Source: Candidatus Heimdallarchaeota archaeon
GTDB lineage: Archaea; Asgardarchaeota; Heimdallarchaeia; Heimdallarchaeales; Heimdallarchaeaceae
Reading direction: 5' to 3'
Length of the DNA: 32,000 nt
NCBI GenBank assembly: GCA_030668875.1
Contig: DAOVER010000011.1
Span: forward strand, 47,426 to 79,425
Part shown: positions 7,949-14,653 of the stretch, piece after piece
Numbering within the stretch: position 1 is the stretch's first letter
How the letters are laid out: the number at the start of each line of letters is the position of its first letter
Made by a program: the position numbers and the translations under genes
Notes under the pieces: model-generated
What the model was told of the DNA's origin: nothing
Seen by the model: only the letters and a program-made list of their open reading frames with translations
Database searches by the model: none

Positions 7949-8674
7949 TTAAACAAAGAAATTAAGAGTCCCATAATAATTGAAGATAATGAATAAAGTA
8001 AGGAAAGTTACCCAAATGACCAATCTACTTACATCCATCCAAGTAATCTTTATTTTTCTGTAATGAGTTCTTTTTTGAATACCAAATCCTCTGAAATAAA
8101 GTGATTGAGCTAAGAACTCTGATCTATAAATTACAGAAGCAATGAGTATAGCTAATGTTTTTGGTAACCAACGGTAAAACCCTCCTTGAATTTCGCCTCT
8201 TAAACGTAAAGCAGTGAATGTATCTTCTGAATCTTTTGCAATTCGAGGAATTATTACTAGAGCTAATGAAGGTATTAGAGCAGCCTTTGAACTAATGTAC
8301 AGTTTTTCCAACGATCTAGTTAGATCTGATGGATTGGTTGAAGTAAAGAAAAATGAAAAACCTATTGCTCCAATAAAGAATCTAGATAGTACTCGAAAAC
8401 ATAAAATCCATCCACCAAAAAGAAAGGTTAAACCACCAAGAATTATGATCACAGGTAGGAGTGACCATAGAATGCTAAGTGATCCCCTGATATTTCTAAA
8501 GATTACACTCTCAAAAATAACAAATGTTAGGAGAAGAGCAAGAGACCAATTGATATTAGGTATTAGAAAACCAAATTGGAGTAGAATGATTGTTAAGCCA
8601 AGTAAAGGATGGATTTGAAATCGGTCGGGCTTAAACAGAAATCCATCATATATTCTTCTCAACATAAAAGACAT
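7949..8674 (-). CDS. ecfT: ECF transporter transmembrane T component
   Basis: Hydrophobic protein with TNPSDL...LE, ALRLRG and SLYFRG coupling-helix XRG motifs. Downstream of the ECF ATPase gene. Confidence 0.82.
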   Translation of the reverse strand: MSFMLRRIYDGFLFKPDRFQIHPLLGLTIILLQFGFLIPNINWSLALLLTFVIFESVIFRNIRGSLSILWSLLPVIIILGGLTFLFGGWILCFRVLSRFFIGAIGFSFFFTSTNPSDLTRSLEKLYISSKAALIPSLALVIIPRIAKDSEDTFTALRLRGEIQGGFYRWLPKTLAILIASVIYRSEFLAQSLYFRGFGIQKRTHYRKIKITWMDVSRLVIWVTFLTLFIIFNYYGTLNFFV

Positions 8675-10315
8675 CTATCTAACACCCCCTAAAAATTCAT
8701 TTACTTCATTCGAATTTACGAAATGTGGTAATTTCATTTGGAATTGTTCTTCCATCTTTTGTATGAAACGAACAATTTGATTTGGAATTAAGTCAGTCTT
8801 ATTTTCTATTTTATATAGAACTTCTCTTGGTTCACCATCTAGACATATTTTACCATCTTGAATGACAATTAATCTGTCAAGATCAACAAAAATCCTAGGG
8901 TCATTGGAAGCTATAATGACTGTCTTATTTCTAGATGTTGCTCTGTTAATGAGATTAGAAAGAACCTTTCTTCCCCGTTTATCTAAACCTATGGTTGGTT
9001 CATCTATTAGGATTATATCATCAGAGAATTGGAAAGCGTTTATAATAGCAAACAACCTTCTTTCTCCTTCACTTAAATGATACAGTTTCTTATTCATAAG
9101 GTGAGTTAATGCTGTTTCCTTATACAATGAGTGAATTGTTCTAGGTTCTTTGATAACCCGAGATAAATCAAGGAAAGGCGTTGGACCAATCAAAAACAGT
9201 TTGGCATTTTCAGGAACTAAAATCACGTGATTTTTACTTTTCCTTATGCTTTTAACTCTTGAATTATTAAGATAAATCTCACCACTTGCAGTTTTATTAA
9301 TTCCTGAAATGACTTTTAGAAGAGTAGATTTTCCACTACCATTAATACCCATTAATCCAATAGACTGACCTGCATAAAGAGATAAATCTATATCTTTCAG
9401 AACCATATCAGTTTTGGAATTATATCGAAAACTAATGTTGTTTAGTTTAACTGAAACATCATTTTCATCATCTACAATCTTCAGGTCGTTAAGTTTGTAT
9501 TGCCTATCAGGTAAGTTTGTAAAAAAAGTTCCGCATTTATCAACTGCTTCATTAACTGTTAGTATTTGTTCTTTTGATGAACATTCGAGCGTATATATTT
9601 CTGGAGGATCAATGTTCTTCAATAAATCTACTGTTTTTTTTGGTAGTCCATCTGAAATTATTTTACCTTCATCTAATATGATAAGCCTATCAGCTTTTTG
9701 TAATATGTAATCTAATCGGTGTTCAAAAGCTATAACTAAGTGACCTTTGTCTGCAATATCTCTTAATAGCTCAGTTAACATAACTTCAGAGTTTGAATCA
9801 ATTCTTGCGATAGGTTCATCGAGTATTATCAGGGGGGCTTCTGTTATAATTGCAACAGCCAAAGCCACTCTTTGTAATTCTCCAGAACTTAATTCAGTGA
9901 TCAATCGTTTTTTCAGGTGTTTTATCTTTAATAAATCAAGAATATAATCAAGCTTCATTTTAATTTCATTTGCTTCAATTGCAAGATTTTCCAAAACAAA
10001 TGCAATCTCCTCTTCAACCAATAACGATGTTGTGAAATCACTAGGATACTGAGGTACATATCCTAACAGTTTAATCAGTTTTTTTCTTTCCAAACCAAAT
10101 ATGGATTCATTGTTGTATTCAATTACACCTTCTATATCTGCTTTGATGAAATTAGGTATTAAACTCATCAAAACTTTTGCTAGAGTGCTTTTTCCACTCC
10201 CACTCGGTCCGGCAATTACAATGAACTCACCAGCTTTTGCTTTAATATTTACAGAATTAAGAGCCTGTCTTTTCTCTGTTTCATATTTAACTGATAAATC
10301 CCTTATATGGAGCAT
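8675..10315 (-). CDS. ecfA: ECF transporter fused double ATPase (A-A')
   Basis: Two NBDs: GPSGSGKST/LSSGE/LDEP and GINGSGKST/LSEGE/IDEP. Confidence 0.9.
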   Translation of the reverse strand: MLHIRDLSVKYETEKRQALNSVNIKAKAGEFIVIAGPSGSGKSTLAKVLMSLIPNFIKADIEGVIEYNNESIFGLERKKLIKLLGYVPQYPSDFTTSLLVEEEIAFVLENLAIEANEIKMKLDYILDLLKIKHLKKRLITELSSGELQRVALAVAIITEAPLIILDEPIARIDSNSEVMLTELLRDIADKGHLVIAFEHRLDYILQKADRLIILDEGKIISDGLPKKTVDLLKNIDPPEIYTLECSSKEQILTVNEAVDKCGTFFTNLPDRQYKLNDLKIVDDENDVSVKLNNISFRYNSKTDMVLKDIDLSLYAGQSIGLMGINGSGKSTLLKVISGINKTASGEIYLNNSRVKSIRKSKNHVILVPENAKLFLIGPTPFLDLSRVIKEPRTIHSLYKETALTHLMNKKLYHLSEGERRLFAIINAFQFSDDIILIDEPTIGLDKRGRKVLSNLINRATSRNKTVIIASNDPRIFVDLDRLIVIQDGKICLDGEPREVLYKIENKTDLIPNQIVRFIQKMEEQFQMKLPHFVNSNEVNEFLGGVR

Positions 10316-11196: not shown

Positions 11197-11219
11197 ATTC
11201 TCACCAACAAAAAGATATT

Positions 11220-11248
11220 CAAGTTACAACTTGTATAGTAATATAAAA
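11220..11248 (-). promoter_or_regulatory. ECF operon TATA box plus candidate palindromic operator
   Basis: TTTTATAT on the minus strand at 11241-11248. Inverted repeat CAAGTT-AC-AACTTG at 11220-11233 between the TATA box and ATG 11196. Confidence 0.4.
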
Positions 11249-11399
11249 TCTTTTAGGTGGATATCTGAAGCAAGGAAGGAAGATGAGTAACCATTTATTT
11301 TTCAATTGAAGTTTCATCTTTTCAAAATATATCAATCCTACTTTAATTTTTTAAAGGATAACCTATTCATATATCTGAAAAAAAAGGAAATTGATTATT

Positions 11400-11759
11400 A
11401 TGAAAAATAAGAAATTACTAACTGGCATAAGTTTTCTAGCTCTACTAGTTTTAGCTACACAGCTTTCAATGATTGGATATGCTGATGAGACAGTAATTGT
11501 AAGAGATTTCGACAGAGATCGAGACCAATATCAAGATGGTACATGTGAAGATCCAAATGAAAATAATTACAATAGTACAATTGTTCCCCCCGAAACAAAT
11601 AACGGAAATGATACATGTATCCCCCCTGGAGATGGAGATCAGATAAGAGAAAGAGATCGTATTAGAGATCAAATTCAAGATGGAACATGTAATTGTACTT
11701 GTATTTGTGAACAAGATGGAATTCAAGAACAACTTCAATTACAAGATGGAAATTGCTAA
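11400..11759 (+). CDS. Small secreted Cys-rich protein with DRDR/QDGxC repeats
   Basis: MKNKK plus hydrophobic signal-peptide-like segment, four QDG motifs, seven Cys and a T-rich tract downstream. ATG 11400 is preferred over TTG 11391. Confidence 0.72.
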   Translation: MKNKKLLTGISFLALLVLATQLSMIGYADETVIVRDFDRDRDQYQDGTCEDPNENNYNSTIVPPETNNGNDTCIPPGDGDQIRERDRIRDQIQDGTCNCTCICEQDGIQEQLQLQDGNC

Positions 11760-11807: not shown

Positions 11808-13151
11808 TCAGAGATAATCTATCAAGTTTCTCATGTTATCCAAAGTTTCCAGGCCTTTTGTTGTCAGTTCATAGTGTTTTCTTGTAACTTCCATCTCACT
11901 AGGTACAATCATTCCTTTTTCTTCTAATTCTGTTAAATGCTGATAAATTGATTGAAGAGATTGATTTTTACCTAAAGAAATCCAAATTGAATAACCATAA
12001 TCAGCTTTCTTTCCAGCAATGAGATTGAGGATTTCAAACTTTGTAGTAGAGCTTTCTGATAATCCCCAAACAACTTTCTTCTTTCCTCTTAATCTAGCTG
12101 CGTAAACGTTAAGTGTACTTAATCCAGAACCAGACAGGATAGCAACACTAGATTTTGAATCTATTATTCCTTCTTGAATGAGATTTTTAGCAGCAACTAA
12201 TACTGATGCTGAGGCTGGTTCAATAAACAGTCCTTCATTTTTAGCTAAAATTAAAGCTTCATCTAACATAGACTCGGCGTCGATTTCTATTTCATTCCCA
12301 TTTGTTTTTTGAATTATCTTTTTCACTTCTTCCAGAAGAAATACCTTTGTAATCTCTAATGATTCTGCTAAATGAGCTACTTTTGTTTTTTCTAATGAAA
12401 CAGCATAAATCTTTGGATATTCTTCAATCCATCCTGAGGCAATAGCATCTTCTAAACCTCGAAAAATGGAATAGATTAAAGATCCTGACCCTCTTGGCAC
12501 TATTATGCTGTCTATAGTGTCTTTCTGTAAAACTATTTCTAGACCAATTGTTTTCTGACCTTCAATAGTTAGAAGATTATTATCTGGAGATGCGTGATAT
12601 ACTTTGTTATCTTGTGCTAGTGTGGAAGAATATTCAATTGCTTCGTCAACTGATTCACCTTTTTCAATAATCTGACTGCCATATATTTTGATTTGTTCAA
12701 TTTTGGAAAGTTCAAGATTTTGTGGGATAACACTTATAGAATCGATTTTAGCTTTTGCAGCATAAGCTGCTAAACTAATACTAAAAGCCCCAGTACTTGC
12801 ACCAACAATAGTTTGTGATTTGTTTTGATATGCATCTGAAACTAATAAAGAACTTGCTCTATCTCGAAAAGAACCAGTAGGATTCCTGAAATCGAGTTTC
12901 AAGCTTAAATCTTGATAATCAGCTATGTTCTTGACAGGCAATAGTGGAGTATTGCCCTCAAAAAGTGAAATTGGTTTGGAAAAATCAGGAAGAAAAGAAT
13001 GTAAAGACCACATTGAGGATAGTTTGACATCACTAAATGATGGTCCACTAATTGGAGGAATGGCAACTAACCCTTTGCAGTTTGAACACCTTAGTTGTGG
13101 ACCTTTGAAAGTTTTTCTACAATCATTACAAGTCGGTTGATTCTTCCACAT
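11808..13151 (-). CDS. Threonine-synthase-fold (PLP fold type II) protein lacking the Schiff-base Lys, with N-terminal Zn ribbon and C-terminal PadR-like winged HTH
   Basis: CNDC...CSNC, EGNTPL, NPTGSFRDR (K to R), ASTG, EGQKTI and EPASA motifs. C-terminal KFEILNLI...YGYSIW...SIYQHLTELEEKGMI...YELT wHTH pattern. ATG 13151 is preferred over TTG 13160. Confidence 0.85.
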   Translation of the reverse strand: MWKNQPTCNDCRKTFKGPQLRCSNCKGLVAIPPISGPSFSDVKLSSMWSLHSFLPDFSKPISLFEGNTPLLPVKNIADYQDLSLKLDFRNPTGSFRDRASSLLVSDAYQNKSQTIVGASTGAFSISLAAYAAKAKIDSISVIPQNLELSKIEQIKIYGSQIIEKGESVDEAIEYSSTLAQDNKVYHASPDNNLLTIEGQKTIGLEIVLQKDTIDSIIVPRGSGSLIYSIFRGLEDAIASGWIEEYPKIYAVSLEKTKVAHLAESLEITKVFLLEEVKKIIQKTNGNEIEIDAESMLDEALILAKNEGLFIEPASASVLVAAKNLIQEGIIDSKSSVAILSGSGLSTLNVYAARLRGKKKVVWGLSESSTTKFEILNLIAGKKADYGYSIWISLGKNQSLQSIYQHLTELEEKGMIVPSEMEVTRKHYELTTKGLETLDNMRNLIDYL

Positions 13152-13190
13152 TATTACCAACGATTAGCACGATAAAATATAATGTTATTG

Positions 13191-13388
13191 CTATACAGAC
13201 AGTGCCATAGGTTCCTCATTTTTATCAATTTCAATATCGCAAGAACATAATTCATCCATAACTTCTTCAATTTGGAAGGAAAGAGGATCCTTGAATTCAA
13301 GAAAGTAATTCATATTCTGTTTTGATAAGAAATCAACCAGCTTAACCAACAATTGCTTTTCTTTTGGAGATTGAACAACTATCCGCAT
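13191..13388 (-). CDS. Small hypothetical protein (65 aa)
   Basis: ATG start, fills the intergenic gap, same strand and 30-40 nt upstream of the ThrC-like gene. No recognised motif. Confidence 0.55.
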   Translation of the reverse strand: MRIVVQSPKEKQLLVKLVDFLSKQNMNYFLEFKDPLSFQIEEVMDELCSCDIEIDKNEEPMALSV

Positions 13389-13482
13389 GAAATAACAGTT
13401 TCATGAATATACAAAAAGATTACCGAAGAGCATATTGCCATTTACTTCACACTTATTAACCATGAAGAAGAAACAATCATCG

Positions 13483-13929
13483 ATGATTCAAGCTATTTAC
13501 ATTATCTCAAGAAATGGTGTTCCTATTCACTTCAAGGAACTTCTGGAAGAAGAAGATAATGTAACTAAAGCTACACTATTTACAGGAATTATATCAGCAA
13601 TTCAAACTGTTTTAAGAGAGATTGATGCAGGTGATGCGAATTACTTCACAACAGCAACTCATGAAATCTTTCTTGAAGTAACAAATGATTTTGCAGTTGC
13701 TCTTGTCACAGAAGTTGATGAAGACTCTGATAAACAGTCAATGAATACTTTGATGTCAGAAATTATAACAGAAATAACTTTTCAATTTGAAGAAATACCC
13801 GAGATTGGTTTCTTAATTCAGGAAGATCAAAGTAAAATTGAGGGAATTGTTGATAGAAATTTAGCTAAATGGGAGAGCAGAAAAGAAGAGGGAAGTGCAA
13901 CAAAGAAATTAAAAGATGCCTTATGGTGA
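13483..13929 (+). CDS. Longin/roadblock-like domain protein
   Basis: MIQAIYIISRNGVPI (beta-beta), TLFTGIISAIQTVLREI (helix), then beta strands, a longin-like pattern common in Asgard archaea. Alternative starts at 13462 and 13435. Confidence 0.7.
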   Translation: MIQAIYIISRNGVPIHFKELLEEEDNVTKATLFTGIISAIQTVLREIDAGDANYFTTATHEIFLEVTNDFAVALVTEVDEDSDKQSMNTLMSEIITEITFQFEEIPEIGFLIQEDQSKIEGIVDRNLAKWESRKEEGSATKKLKDALW

Positions 13930-13933
13930 TAAT

Positions 13934-14653
13934 ATGTTTGAACAGAATGGAATTCCAGTTTTAGCCTTGATAATTGAACCACTAGTTGCAGTAGGTATGC
14001 TAATACTAGCAGTAAGTGGTTTTATGAAATATAGAGAGAAAAAGAGACAACCAACATTATTCCTCACTCTTAGCTTTGTTTTCTACGCATTAGCAATTGC
14101 AAGTAGTGGAATAGGAAAATGGTTACAGTTCTTTGTAAATGTACCTTCAGAGGATATATTCTTCGCAGATGGAACTATTCTAATAGCATATTGTTTGACT
14201 GCAATAGCAACAGTTTTTCTTATGATATTTGTGGATTTAGTATTCTTAGAAGTAGGACCCTGGTTTGTTGCTTTAGTTGGCATAATAAATGGTATCACAG
14301 TAGGAATGATGATCACTAAATTAAACTTCTCAAGTGAAGCTTATGATGAAGCACTAAATATTGTTATATTTCATGCACTAGTCACACTAGCTTTGGTTTT
14401 ACTTCTAGCTATTTTATCTTTTAGAGAAGCTCAACAGAATAAAGAGAGATTACCTAAAATGGGCTTTACATTCATAGGACTCTATGGTTTATTCGTGAGC
14501 ATGGTATTTGTGCTATTTGCAGTGGATATTGCCTTAGGAGGCGGATATTCAGCGTTTTATTATCTTGCATGGGTATCAGCAGGTTTAGGTTCACTATTTG
14601 GATACGTTGGATATATTATGCCCGATTGGTTTAAAAAACTTCTAAAGATTTAA
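13934..14653 (+). CDS. Stand-alone seven-transmembrane protein
   Basis: Seven hydrophobic segments and a short amphipathic tail MPDWFKKLLKI. GGTGA SD overlaps the longin stop, supporting ATG 13934. Confidence 0.75.
   Translation: MFEQNGIPVLALIIEPLVAVGMLILAVSGFMKYREKKRQPTLFLTLSFVFYALAIASSGIGKWLQFFVNVPSEDIFFADGTILIAYCLTAIATVFLMIFVDLVFLEVGPWFVALVGIINGITVGMMITKLNFSSEAYDEALNIVIFHALVTLALVLLLAILSFREAQQNKERLPKMGFTFIGLYGLFVSMVFVLFAVDIALGGGYSAFYYLAWVSAGLGSLFGYVGYIMPDWFKKLLKI

Follow-up and report, generated by a model that had tools for sequence, protein, structure and literature searches.

Among described systems, the closest to the one analysed here are PdxR and the MocR regulators (GabR, TauR), one-component transcription factors whose sensor is a domain derived from a PLP enzyme. 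In MocR, a winged helix-turn-helix (wHTH) of the GntR type lies at the N-terminus and is joined to an aminotransferase-like domain of fold type I in which the PLP lysine is retained. Fold type II PLP enzymes need the lysine of the SFKDR motif for the PLP aldimine, and one of them, the O-acetylserine sulfhydrylase CysK of Bacillus subtilis, is the metabolite-sensing partner of the wHTH repressor CymR. CymR and CysK are two separate proteins and CysK is an active enzyme, whereas in the protein described below the two parts are fused and the enzyme part appears to be dead. ThiR is the archaeal regulator of thiamine. Its counterpart for riboflavin is RbkR (PMC5397151). Both join an archaeal wHTH to a domain from an enzyme of the sensed pathway or cofactor, and control genes for vitamin synthesis and for ECF or other transporters through palindromic operators near the TATA box. 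As regards vitamin B6, the regulon of bacterial PdxR comprises pdxST, pdxK and pdxU, and MocR has been reported to be absent from Archaea (PMC5320631). The literature that we searched holds no description of an enzyme-derived B6 regulator of archaea, and none of a protein family in which a body resembling threonine synthase (ThrC) is fused to a wHTH.

Such a fusion is encoded in a Candidatus Heimdallarchaeota genome (assembly GCA_030668875.1), within the window analysed in this study, a stretch of 32,000 nucleotides (contig DAOVER010000011.1, positions 47,426 to 79,425). We propose that the gene probably specifies a one-component regulator of vitamin B6 acquisition, a B6-responsive repressor that would use a dead enzyme domain as its sensor. 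The protein resembles PdxR in its putative targets, which are of the pdxST and PdxU type, and the analogy is functional only. Unlike in MocR, the wHTH is C-terminal and of the PadR type, and the sensor part, devoid of the lysine, is ThrC-like and of fold type II; the regulator is an independent invention, not a homologue of MocR/PdxR. The difference from RbkR and ThiR lies in the fold of the sensor, which is a riboflavin kinase in the former (still catalytic in RbkR) and ThiN in the latter.

Domain architecture of the proposed regulator

The features of the locus are listed in Table 1. Residue numbers of the regulator follow the frame of the minus-strand ORF 11808-13160, whose translation is free of stops and in which the ATG at 13151 is the likely start.

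Table 1. Features of the regulator gene and of the adjacent ECF operon (positions in the window).
Feature	Position	Strand	Remarks
Regulator gene: zinc ribbon, ThrC-like fold type II PLP domain without the Schiff-base Lys, PadR-type wHTH	11808..13151	-	447 aa from ATG 13151
Zinc ribbon, N-terminal CxxC...CxxC (C11, C14, C25, C28)	13077..13130	-	nearly invariant within the family
PALP (fold type II PLP-dependent enzyme) domain, residues 64-344	12129..12971	-	carries the predicted homodimer interface
Arg99 codon (CGA) at the position of the PLP Schiff-base Lys	12864..12866	-	SFKDR to SFRDR
Ala125 codon (GCT) at the position of the ASTGN Asn	12786..12788	-	ASTGA
C-terminal PadR-type wHTH, residues 369-450	11811..12056	-	
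65-aa ORF directly upstream of the regulator gene	13191..13388	-	same strand; positionally conserved, about 20 Heimdallarchaeaceae loci
Predicted operator, 22-bp palindrome TATACAAGTTGTAACTTGAATA (minus strand)	11216..11237		upstream of the ECF operon
TATA box TTTTATAT of the ECF operon promoter	11241..11248	-	assigned from its placement with respect to the ATG
ECF transporter S component, PF07155	10348..11196	-	predicted target gene
Fused EcfA-EcfA' ATPase, two ABC_tran domains	8675..10315	-	same ECF operon
EcfT transmembrane component (CbiQ family)	7949..8674	-	same ECF operon

The zinc ribbon is also found in the true ThrC paralogues of the same genome. The match to the Pfam PALP profile (PF00291), with an E-value of 3e-54, places the central part of the protein in fold type II. 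An AF2 model of the regulator, built on 56 homologues, has a pLDDT of 89.3, and a Foldseek search with the body of this model returns solved ThrC structures as top matches (6nmx, 1uin and 2d1f; 26-28% identity, TM about 0.8 on the target).

Several observations identify the C-terminal domain as a predicted wHTH of the PadR family (PF03551). The Pfam match, at residues 377-440, scores 26.9 bits when the whole protein is searched and 30.4 bits with the isolated domain, against a gathering cut-off of 27; PadR is matched by all of the homologous C-terminal domains tested (56/56), and the regulator gives no match to GntR. Modelled alone with AF2, the last 93 residues adopt the layout H-H-H-E-E-H (pLDDT 84). 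The best PDB matches to the domain in Foldseek are the PadR-type regulators 4esb, 6abt and 6abq and the archaeal RosR, 6ez1 (TM 0.66-0.74), and its sequence profile recovers the same PadR proteins. In the recognition helix, Q403, Y406, Q407 and H408 are nearly invariant across the lineages that carry the gene. The resemblance to PadR, seen in both HMM and fold matches, includes the helix C-terminal to the wHTH, and recognition of a palindrome by a dimer would be expected. However, canonical PadR proteins are about 110-180 aa long, with the wHTH at the N-terminus and the ligand bound between subunits, whereas in the regulator a sensor of 360 aa, which supplies the predicted dimer interface, carries the wHTH at its C-terminal end as an output module.

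The homodimer prediction gave an ipSAE of 0.85 (best control, 0.00) with a symmetric interface in PALP (residues 49-161 and 303-357), a result that may represent recall or likeness only, because ThrC dimers have already been solved. The mark used for homodimers is reached by 20 of 30 solved homodimers and by 1 of 23 monomers; between runs at least 50% of the contacts agree, with a pLDDT of at least 81. The prediction is consistent with a PALP homodimer presenting two wHTH to a dyad. As to the 65-aa ORF upstream, it is possibly co-transcribed with the regulator gene.

Loss of the Schiff-base lysine in the ThrC-derived domain

The regulator shares with threonine synthases (EC 4.2.3.1; TIGR00260, NF006050, NF004170) the zinc ribbon, the PALP fold, the frame of the Schiff-base motif and a glycine-rich phosphate loop. 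In its motif, F-R-N-P-T-G-S-F-R-D-R, the NPTGSF.DR frame is kept and Arg99 aligns with K61 of T. thermophilus ThrC (TtThrC; the lysine being numbered as counted in the alignment). The ASTGN asparagine of ThrC, presumably a contact to PLP O3', is not only Ala in the regulator but Ser in most Asgard members, so that PLP affinity or vitamer preference may differ; members from Thermococcales and Bathyarchaeia have Asn. The TtThrC residues N154, S155, R160 and N188, which we take to be the binding site for the phosphate of O-phosphohomoserine, align with S191, P192, T198 and S225. The position of TtThrC Thr317, which we take to be the residue at ring N1 of PLP, is occupied by Ser, and the phosphate loop has changed from GNAGN to GSGSL. 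(Functional roles of ThrC residues are assigned after the T. thermophilus structures.) Thus, in comparison with threonine synthase, the regulator has Arg for Lys, Ala for the O3' Asn, a replaced O-phosphohomoserine phosphate site and an extra wHTH. It scores under all of the ThrC HMM cut-offs (287.7 against 421 for NF004170; 138 against 301 for NF005035; 105.8 against 167.1 for TIGR00260), and two bona fide ThrC genes bearing the lysine are present elsewhere in the genome (NF006050, 581 bits; TIGR00260, 195 bits). By homology, the regulator is a member of the PadR family and, within fold type II, of the ThrC branch, but it fails in the catalytic features that define ThrC.

About 95 Asgard homologues (45-92% identity) and more distant ones from Thermococcales share Arg99, which hence is not a sequencing error. 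All of these proteins read SF-R-DR and all carry a C-terminal domain of about 85 residues, while every relative without the C-terminal extension reads SFKDR and ASTGN. The census of the family was taken by a profile search over 1.84 billion cluster representatives. The Schiff-base lysine is missing in 193 of about 197 fused proteins and kept in 67 of 67 unfused relatives. In the fused set the position is occupied by R (118 proteins), I (26), L (22), V (9), T (5), M (4), F (3) or K (4), others being single cases; two of the four K-bearing proteins have a different extension, 220 residues long. Positions F98, D100, R101, G224, G226, E200-G-Q-K-T204 and G346, which frame the pocket, are invariant or nearly so across the fused family, indicating that the sensor domain is under purifying selection. 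A FastTree phylogeny was computed from the alignment columns of PALP alone, the Lys column being masked. It groups the unfused enzymes in a single clade (support 99), to which no fused protein belongs. The regulator sits in an R-type clade with 100% support that includes Thermococcales, and the fused proteins that retain the lysine are nested inside. As far as sequence conservation can tell, the ThrC-derived domain of the regulator is a selected pseudoenzyme and not a decayed gene.

An earlier note on this DNA, made from the letters alone, had described a ThrC-like body reading NPTGSFRDR, with CGA at 12864-12866, Ala in place of the ASTGN asparagine (12786-12788) and a PadR-like wHTH at about 11808-12050. 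The sequence, the PALP match and the fold matches bear out the first of these points, the GCT codon the second, and HMM and fold matches to residues 369-450 the third. The note had also held a base error in the Arg codon to be unlikely, as the conservation of the residue now confirms, and had raised the co-occurrence of the K to R change with the wHTH, which the census upholds. Its surmise that such fusions might be filed as threonine synthases proved correct as well. The databases name the family either "threonine synthase" or "PLP-dependent enzyme", and the NCBIfam model NF004170, which extends over the wHTH and is an "equivalog" with the name threonine synthase, gives this name to fusion proteins devoid of the lysine; one such protein, from Pyrococcus yayanosii, passes NF004170 with 773 bits.

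A palindrome at the promoter of the adjacent ECF operon

The regulator gene is followed on its own strand by an ECF transporter operon. Its S component scores 72.9 bits against PF07155 (cut-off 26.7) and has HmpT as its only PDB sequence match (4hzu_S, E 1.4e-7). Despite the word "riboflavin" in its name, PF07155 is the family of PdxU and of PdxU2/HmpT, which are characterised ECF transporters of B6 (PMC9997740). The cargo of HmpT is pyridoxamine, contacted by Glu41 and His84 (PMC4860826); in the S component the Glu is conserved and the His is changed to Lys. The S gene may specify a subunit of a B6-vitamer importer. No PdxS was found in this 92%-complete genome, which fits reliance on B6 uptake. 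As no B6 kinase of the Phos_pyr_kin type was found in the genome, B6 salvage after uptake is incomplete as reconstructed.

The predicted operator, with consensus TATWCAAGTTnnAACTTGWATA, starts 3 nt past the TATA box of this operon, approximately 20 nt upstream of the ATG of the S gene, and would span the expected transcription start. Overlap with the start of transcription is the classical position of an archaeal repressor site. A PWM scan of the 3.2-Mb genome gave a single strong site (29.7 bits); all other matches scored 18.6 bits or less, with a random maximum of about 20. No second site above noise was found in this genome, and a wider regulon is thus not supported. As 18 sites were used to train the PWM, the evidence from it is circular in part; the sites at pdxS, those of Thermococcus, Methanobacteriota and Bathyarchaeia, and several of the Heimdall sites lay outside the training set. 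Because of its short arms, the operator escaped a repeat search run with the default arm length. Autoregulation through this operator was considered and is unsupported, because no PWM site lies upstream of the unit formed by the small ORF and the regulator gene in any locus; the exception is an S gene directly abutting the regulator.

Predicted operator and proposed regulator gene across Archaea

In each of the ten congeneric genomes in which an S gene (PF07155) was found, this gene lies directly downstream of the regulator gene and on the same strand. The S gene is also directly downstream, on the same strand, in both genomes of a second family (regulators 50% identical). In Promethearchaeum syntrophicum MK-D1 it follows on the same strand at 1 kb. 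The distance between the two genes is 7 kb in Lokiarchaeum ossiferum; in three other Heimdall genera the two are unlinked. Linked or unlinked, every S gene of these genomes has the palindrome between TATA and ATG, often in two copies. Four congeneric genomes have the regulator but are devoid of PF07155 genes. It is precisely these four that possess pdxS-pdxT; in all of them a single or double operator is found immediately upstream of pdxS; in two of the four, pdxS adjoins the regulator gene. In the genomes with an S gene, the one studied here included, PdxS was not found. Overall, about 29 genomes that bear the regulator have the operator in front of PF07155 genes or pdxS-pdxT; they come from Heimdall, Loki, Bathyarchaeia, a Methanobacteriota MAG and Thermococcus. 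The association of the operator with genes of PdxU-family transporters or with pdxS-pdxT points to B6 as the class of ligand.

The fused gene stands directly beside a PF07155 gene in further loci, from Bathyarchaeia and a Desulfurococcales MAG, from Promethearchaeia/Hermodarchaeota (lysine-retaining), from Nitrosopumilales (Ile type) and from Thorarchaeota (Leu type). Unlinked PF07155 genes preceded by the operator core occur in a Thermococcus MAG and, with two sites each, in a Methanobacteriota MAG and a Bathyarchaeon. The pattern matches the complete Thermococcus pacificus genome at a single place, a double site that lies between a TATA-like box and the ATG of pdxS-pdxT. The regulator gene of Thermococcales follows the genes for proteasome-beta and aCPSF1 and is not beside B6 genes; this neighbourhood offers no functional clue, and the link in Thermococcales is the operator at pdxST. 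Two matches were discarded, one to the PWM in a Hermodarchaeota locus, since it lies inside a coding region, and one to the pattern with one mismatch in another genome, since it lies inside an ORF.

None of the 12 regulator-lacking genomes examined contains the operator. PF07155 genes are present in all eight genomes of a sister family that lacks the regulator, and the seven PF07155 loci examined from this family have no operator. Three regulator-lacking genomes of another family have pdxS, with the operator at none, and both the targets and the motif are missing from two congeneric genomes that lack the regulator. The unlinked S operons inspected are not flanked by a gene for any other transcription factor. 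The near-invariance of the recognition helix across lineages fits the conservation of the operator.

Discussion

We propose that the ThrC-derived fold type II domain of the regulator, which has lost the catalytic lysine and the substrate-phosphate residues and kept the cofactor pocket, would sense a B6 vitamer reversibly, the likeliest candidate being PLP. Dimerisation via the PALP domain would bring two PadR-type winged helices onto the 22-bp palindrome. When B6 is plentiful, the liganded dimer would occupy the operator and block transcription of the adjacent operon for an importer of the ECF-PdxU type; in relatives that make their own PLP, pdxS-pdxT would be the target instead. Feedback repression is the simplest logic because the operator lies over the expected transcription start and because the targets are uptake and synthesis genes. 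In this scheme we infer the identity of the ligand, the co-repression logic and the binding of DNA by the regulator, and the choice of PLP would follow from the retained cofactor pocket and from the analogy with PdxR. O-phosphohomoserine and threonine were set aside as ligands because the phosphate-site residues are replaced and all the targets are B6 genes. The earlier note had suggested a sensor-regulator responding to an amino acid, a phospho-amino acid or a B6 vitamer. The sequence evidence supports the sensor-regulator, and comparative genomics narrows the three choices to B6.

Of the other explanations, the one that survives best, while still unlikely, retains a factor of the B6 regulon and changes its ligand or its logic: PMP, PNP, pyridoxal or an adduct of PLP with an amino acid would be sensed, or the apo form would bind DNA and be released by the ligand. 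Loss of the lysine takes away the sole covalent anchor specific for PLP, an aldimine being impossible for PMP and PNP in any case, and the position of the O3'-contact Asn varies between Ala, Ser and Asn. Fused members that keep the lysine also adjoin PF07155 genes, which argues that the mode of cofactor binding varies within the family. Pyridoxamine, moreover, is what HmpT carries (PMC4860826). Nevertheless, with the operator past the TATA box and over the transcription start, and with targets in both uptake and synthesis, ligand-dependent repression is the simplest reading, and PLP is the signal for bacterial PdxR (PMC5320631).

There is a still smaller chance that another factor binds the operator and that the ThrC-like-wHTH protein is non-regulatory, for example a carrier or store of PLP whose winged helix serves protein contacts. 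DNA binding by the regulator is a prediction, some winged helices do mediate protein-protein contacts, and in Thermococcales, as in several genera, the regulator gene lies away from the targets proposed for it. However, the operator tracks the regulator gene over five archaeal lineages and is missing where the gene is missing, and the unlinked S operons examined have no gene for another transcription factor at their flanks. The recognition-helix residues, nearly invariant across phyla, match the conserved operator, and the PadR profile is matched by every C-terminal domain tested. Finally, that the protein has remained a PLP-dependent enzyme, as a paralogue of ThrC that works with another Lys or with Arg chemistry and has the wHTH as an accessory, would agree with the conserved fold, with the conservation of much of the cofactor pocket and with the database name of threonine synthase, yet is hardly credible given the scatter of residues at the Schiff-base position (R, I, L, V, M, T, F and others), which leaves no chemistry common to all, the replaced substrate-phosphate residues, the scores below all ThrC HMM cut-offs and the two genuine ThrC genes in the genome.

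The B6 repressor proposed here may belong to a wider picture, which we advance only tentatively. The fused family might be an ancient, pan-archaeal regulator of B6 with a single origin, in which the recognition helix and the CAAGTT-nn-AACTTG core have stayed unchanged from Asgard to Bathyarchaeia and Thermococci. Replacement of the Schiff-base lysine would have made a freely reversible sensor out of a site that held its cofactor covalently, and the lysine-retaining fused members found by PdxU-type genes would be surviving intermediates on the way from enzyme to sensor. The alternative to a single origin is horizontal spread of the regulator together with its operator.

Archaea lack MocR/PdxR, and the literature searched describes no B6 regulator for them; the family would close this gap in Asgard archaea, Bathyarchaeia, Thermococcales and others. 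The analysis supplies a precise operator and regulon, both testable, and corrects a systematic misannotation. The regulator might also provide a part for B6 biosensors, and the family would offer a clean natural case in which the loss of one catalytic residue allowed an enzyme fold to be recruited for cofactor sensing. The system would also show which uncultured archaea import B6 rather than make it. This would be of use for the cultivation of Asgard archaea, the system being present in MK-D1 and in Lokiarchaeum ossiferum.

Genes surrounding the proposed regulator and its predicted target operon

Three features neighbor the regulator gene in the window (see table below). A 65-aa ORF keeps its position before the regulator in about 20 loci spread over several Heimdallarchaeaceae genera, with 47-82% identity; none was seen in Loki loci, and Pfam returned no match for the ORF. 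Its product may be a partner co-transcribed with the regulator. The pair of genes encoding a Roadblock/longin-like protein and a membrane protein is divergent from the unit formed by the small ORF and the regulator, and the position of the Roadblock/longin-like gene is conserved in at least 7 congeneric loci. The signal-peptide protein carries many Asp-Arg repeats and Cys motifs. A similar DR/CDP-rich ORF occurs in a congeneric genome (locus L049, 1651-2001), where it takes the corresponding spot, between the regulator gene and pdxS.

Features neighboring the regulator gene in the window
Feature	Coordinates	Strand	Location
65-aa ORF	13191-13388	-	immediately upstream of the regulator, same strand
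Small signal-peptide protein	11391-11759	+	separates the regulator gene from the predicted target operon
Gene pair: Roadblock/longin-like 164-aa protein and multi-pass membrane protein	13435-14653	+	

Fused relatives and their annotation

The Schiff-base Lys (SFKDR) is kept in fused ThrC-like-wHTH proteins from Bathyarchaeia (loci L064 and L065) and from Promethearchaeia and Hermodarchaeota (L079-L082). Their genes adjoin PF07155 S-component genes, and in the tree these proteins fall within the clade of R-type proteins (those with Arg at the Lys position). Possibly, they are covalent-PLP sensors or evolutionary intermediates.

The NCBIfam model NF004170 (PRK05638), an "equivalog" model under the name threonine synthase, spans 442 positions with the wHTH included, and the Lys-less Pyrococcus yayanosii protein passes it with 773 bits. 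This model is one cause of systematic misannotation.

Gene context in Thermococcales and B6 supply in the source organism

In P. yayanosii and Thermococcus pacificus (loci L009 and L010, 5400-9332), the regulator gene is directly preceded by genes for the proteasome beta subunit and aCPSF1/FttA (KH and beta-CASP). This arrangement, with gaps of only 4-22 nt among the three genes, suggests that the regulator gene is co-transcribed with core RNA-processing genes there. Elsewhere in T. pacificus (L146, 1-1397), NAD synthesis genes lie immediately upstream of a pdxST operon with a predicted double operator; as read from their translations, they encode quinolinate synthase and quinolinate phosphoribosyltransferase.

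Searches of the genome that contains the window, which is 92% complete, turned up no PdxS (PF01680) and no Phos_pyr_kin-type B6/HMP kinase (PF08543); archaeal control genomes gave matches in both cases. The source organism looks B6-auxotrophic.
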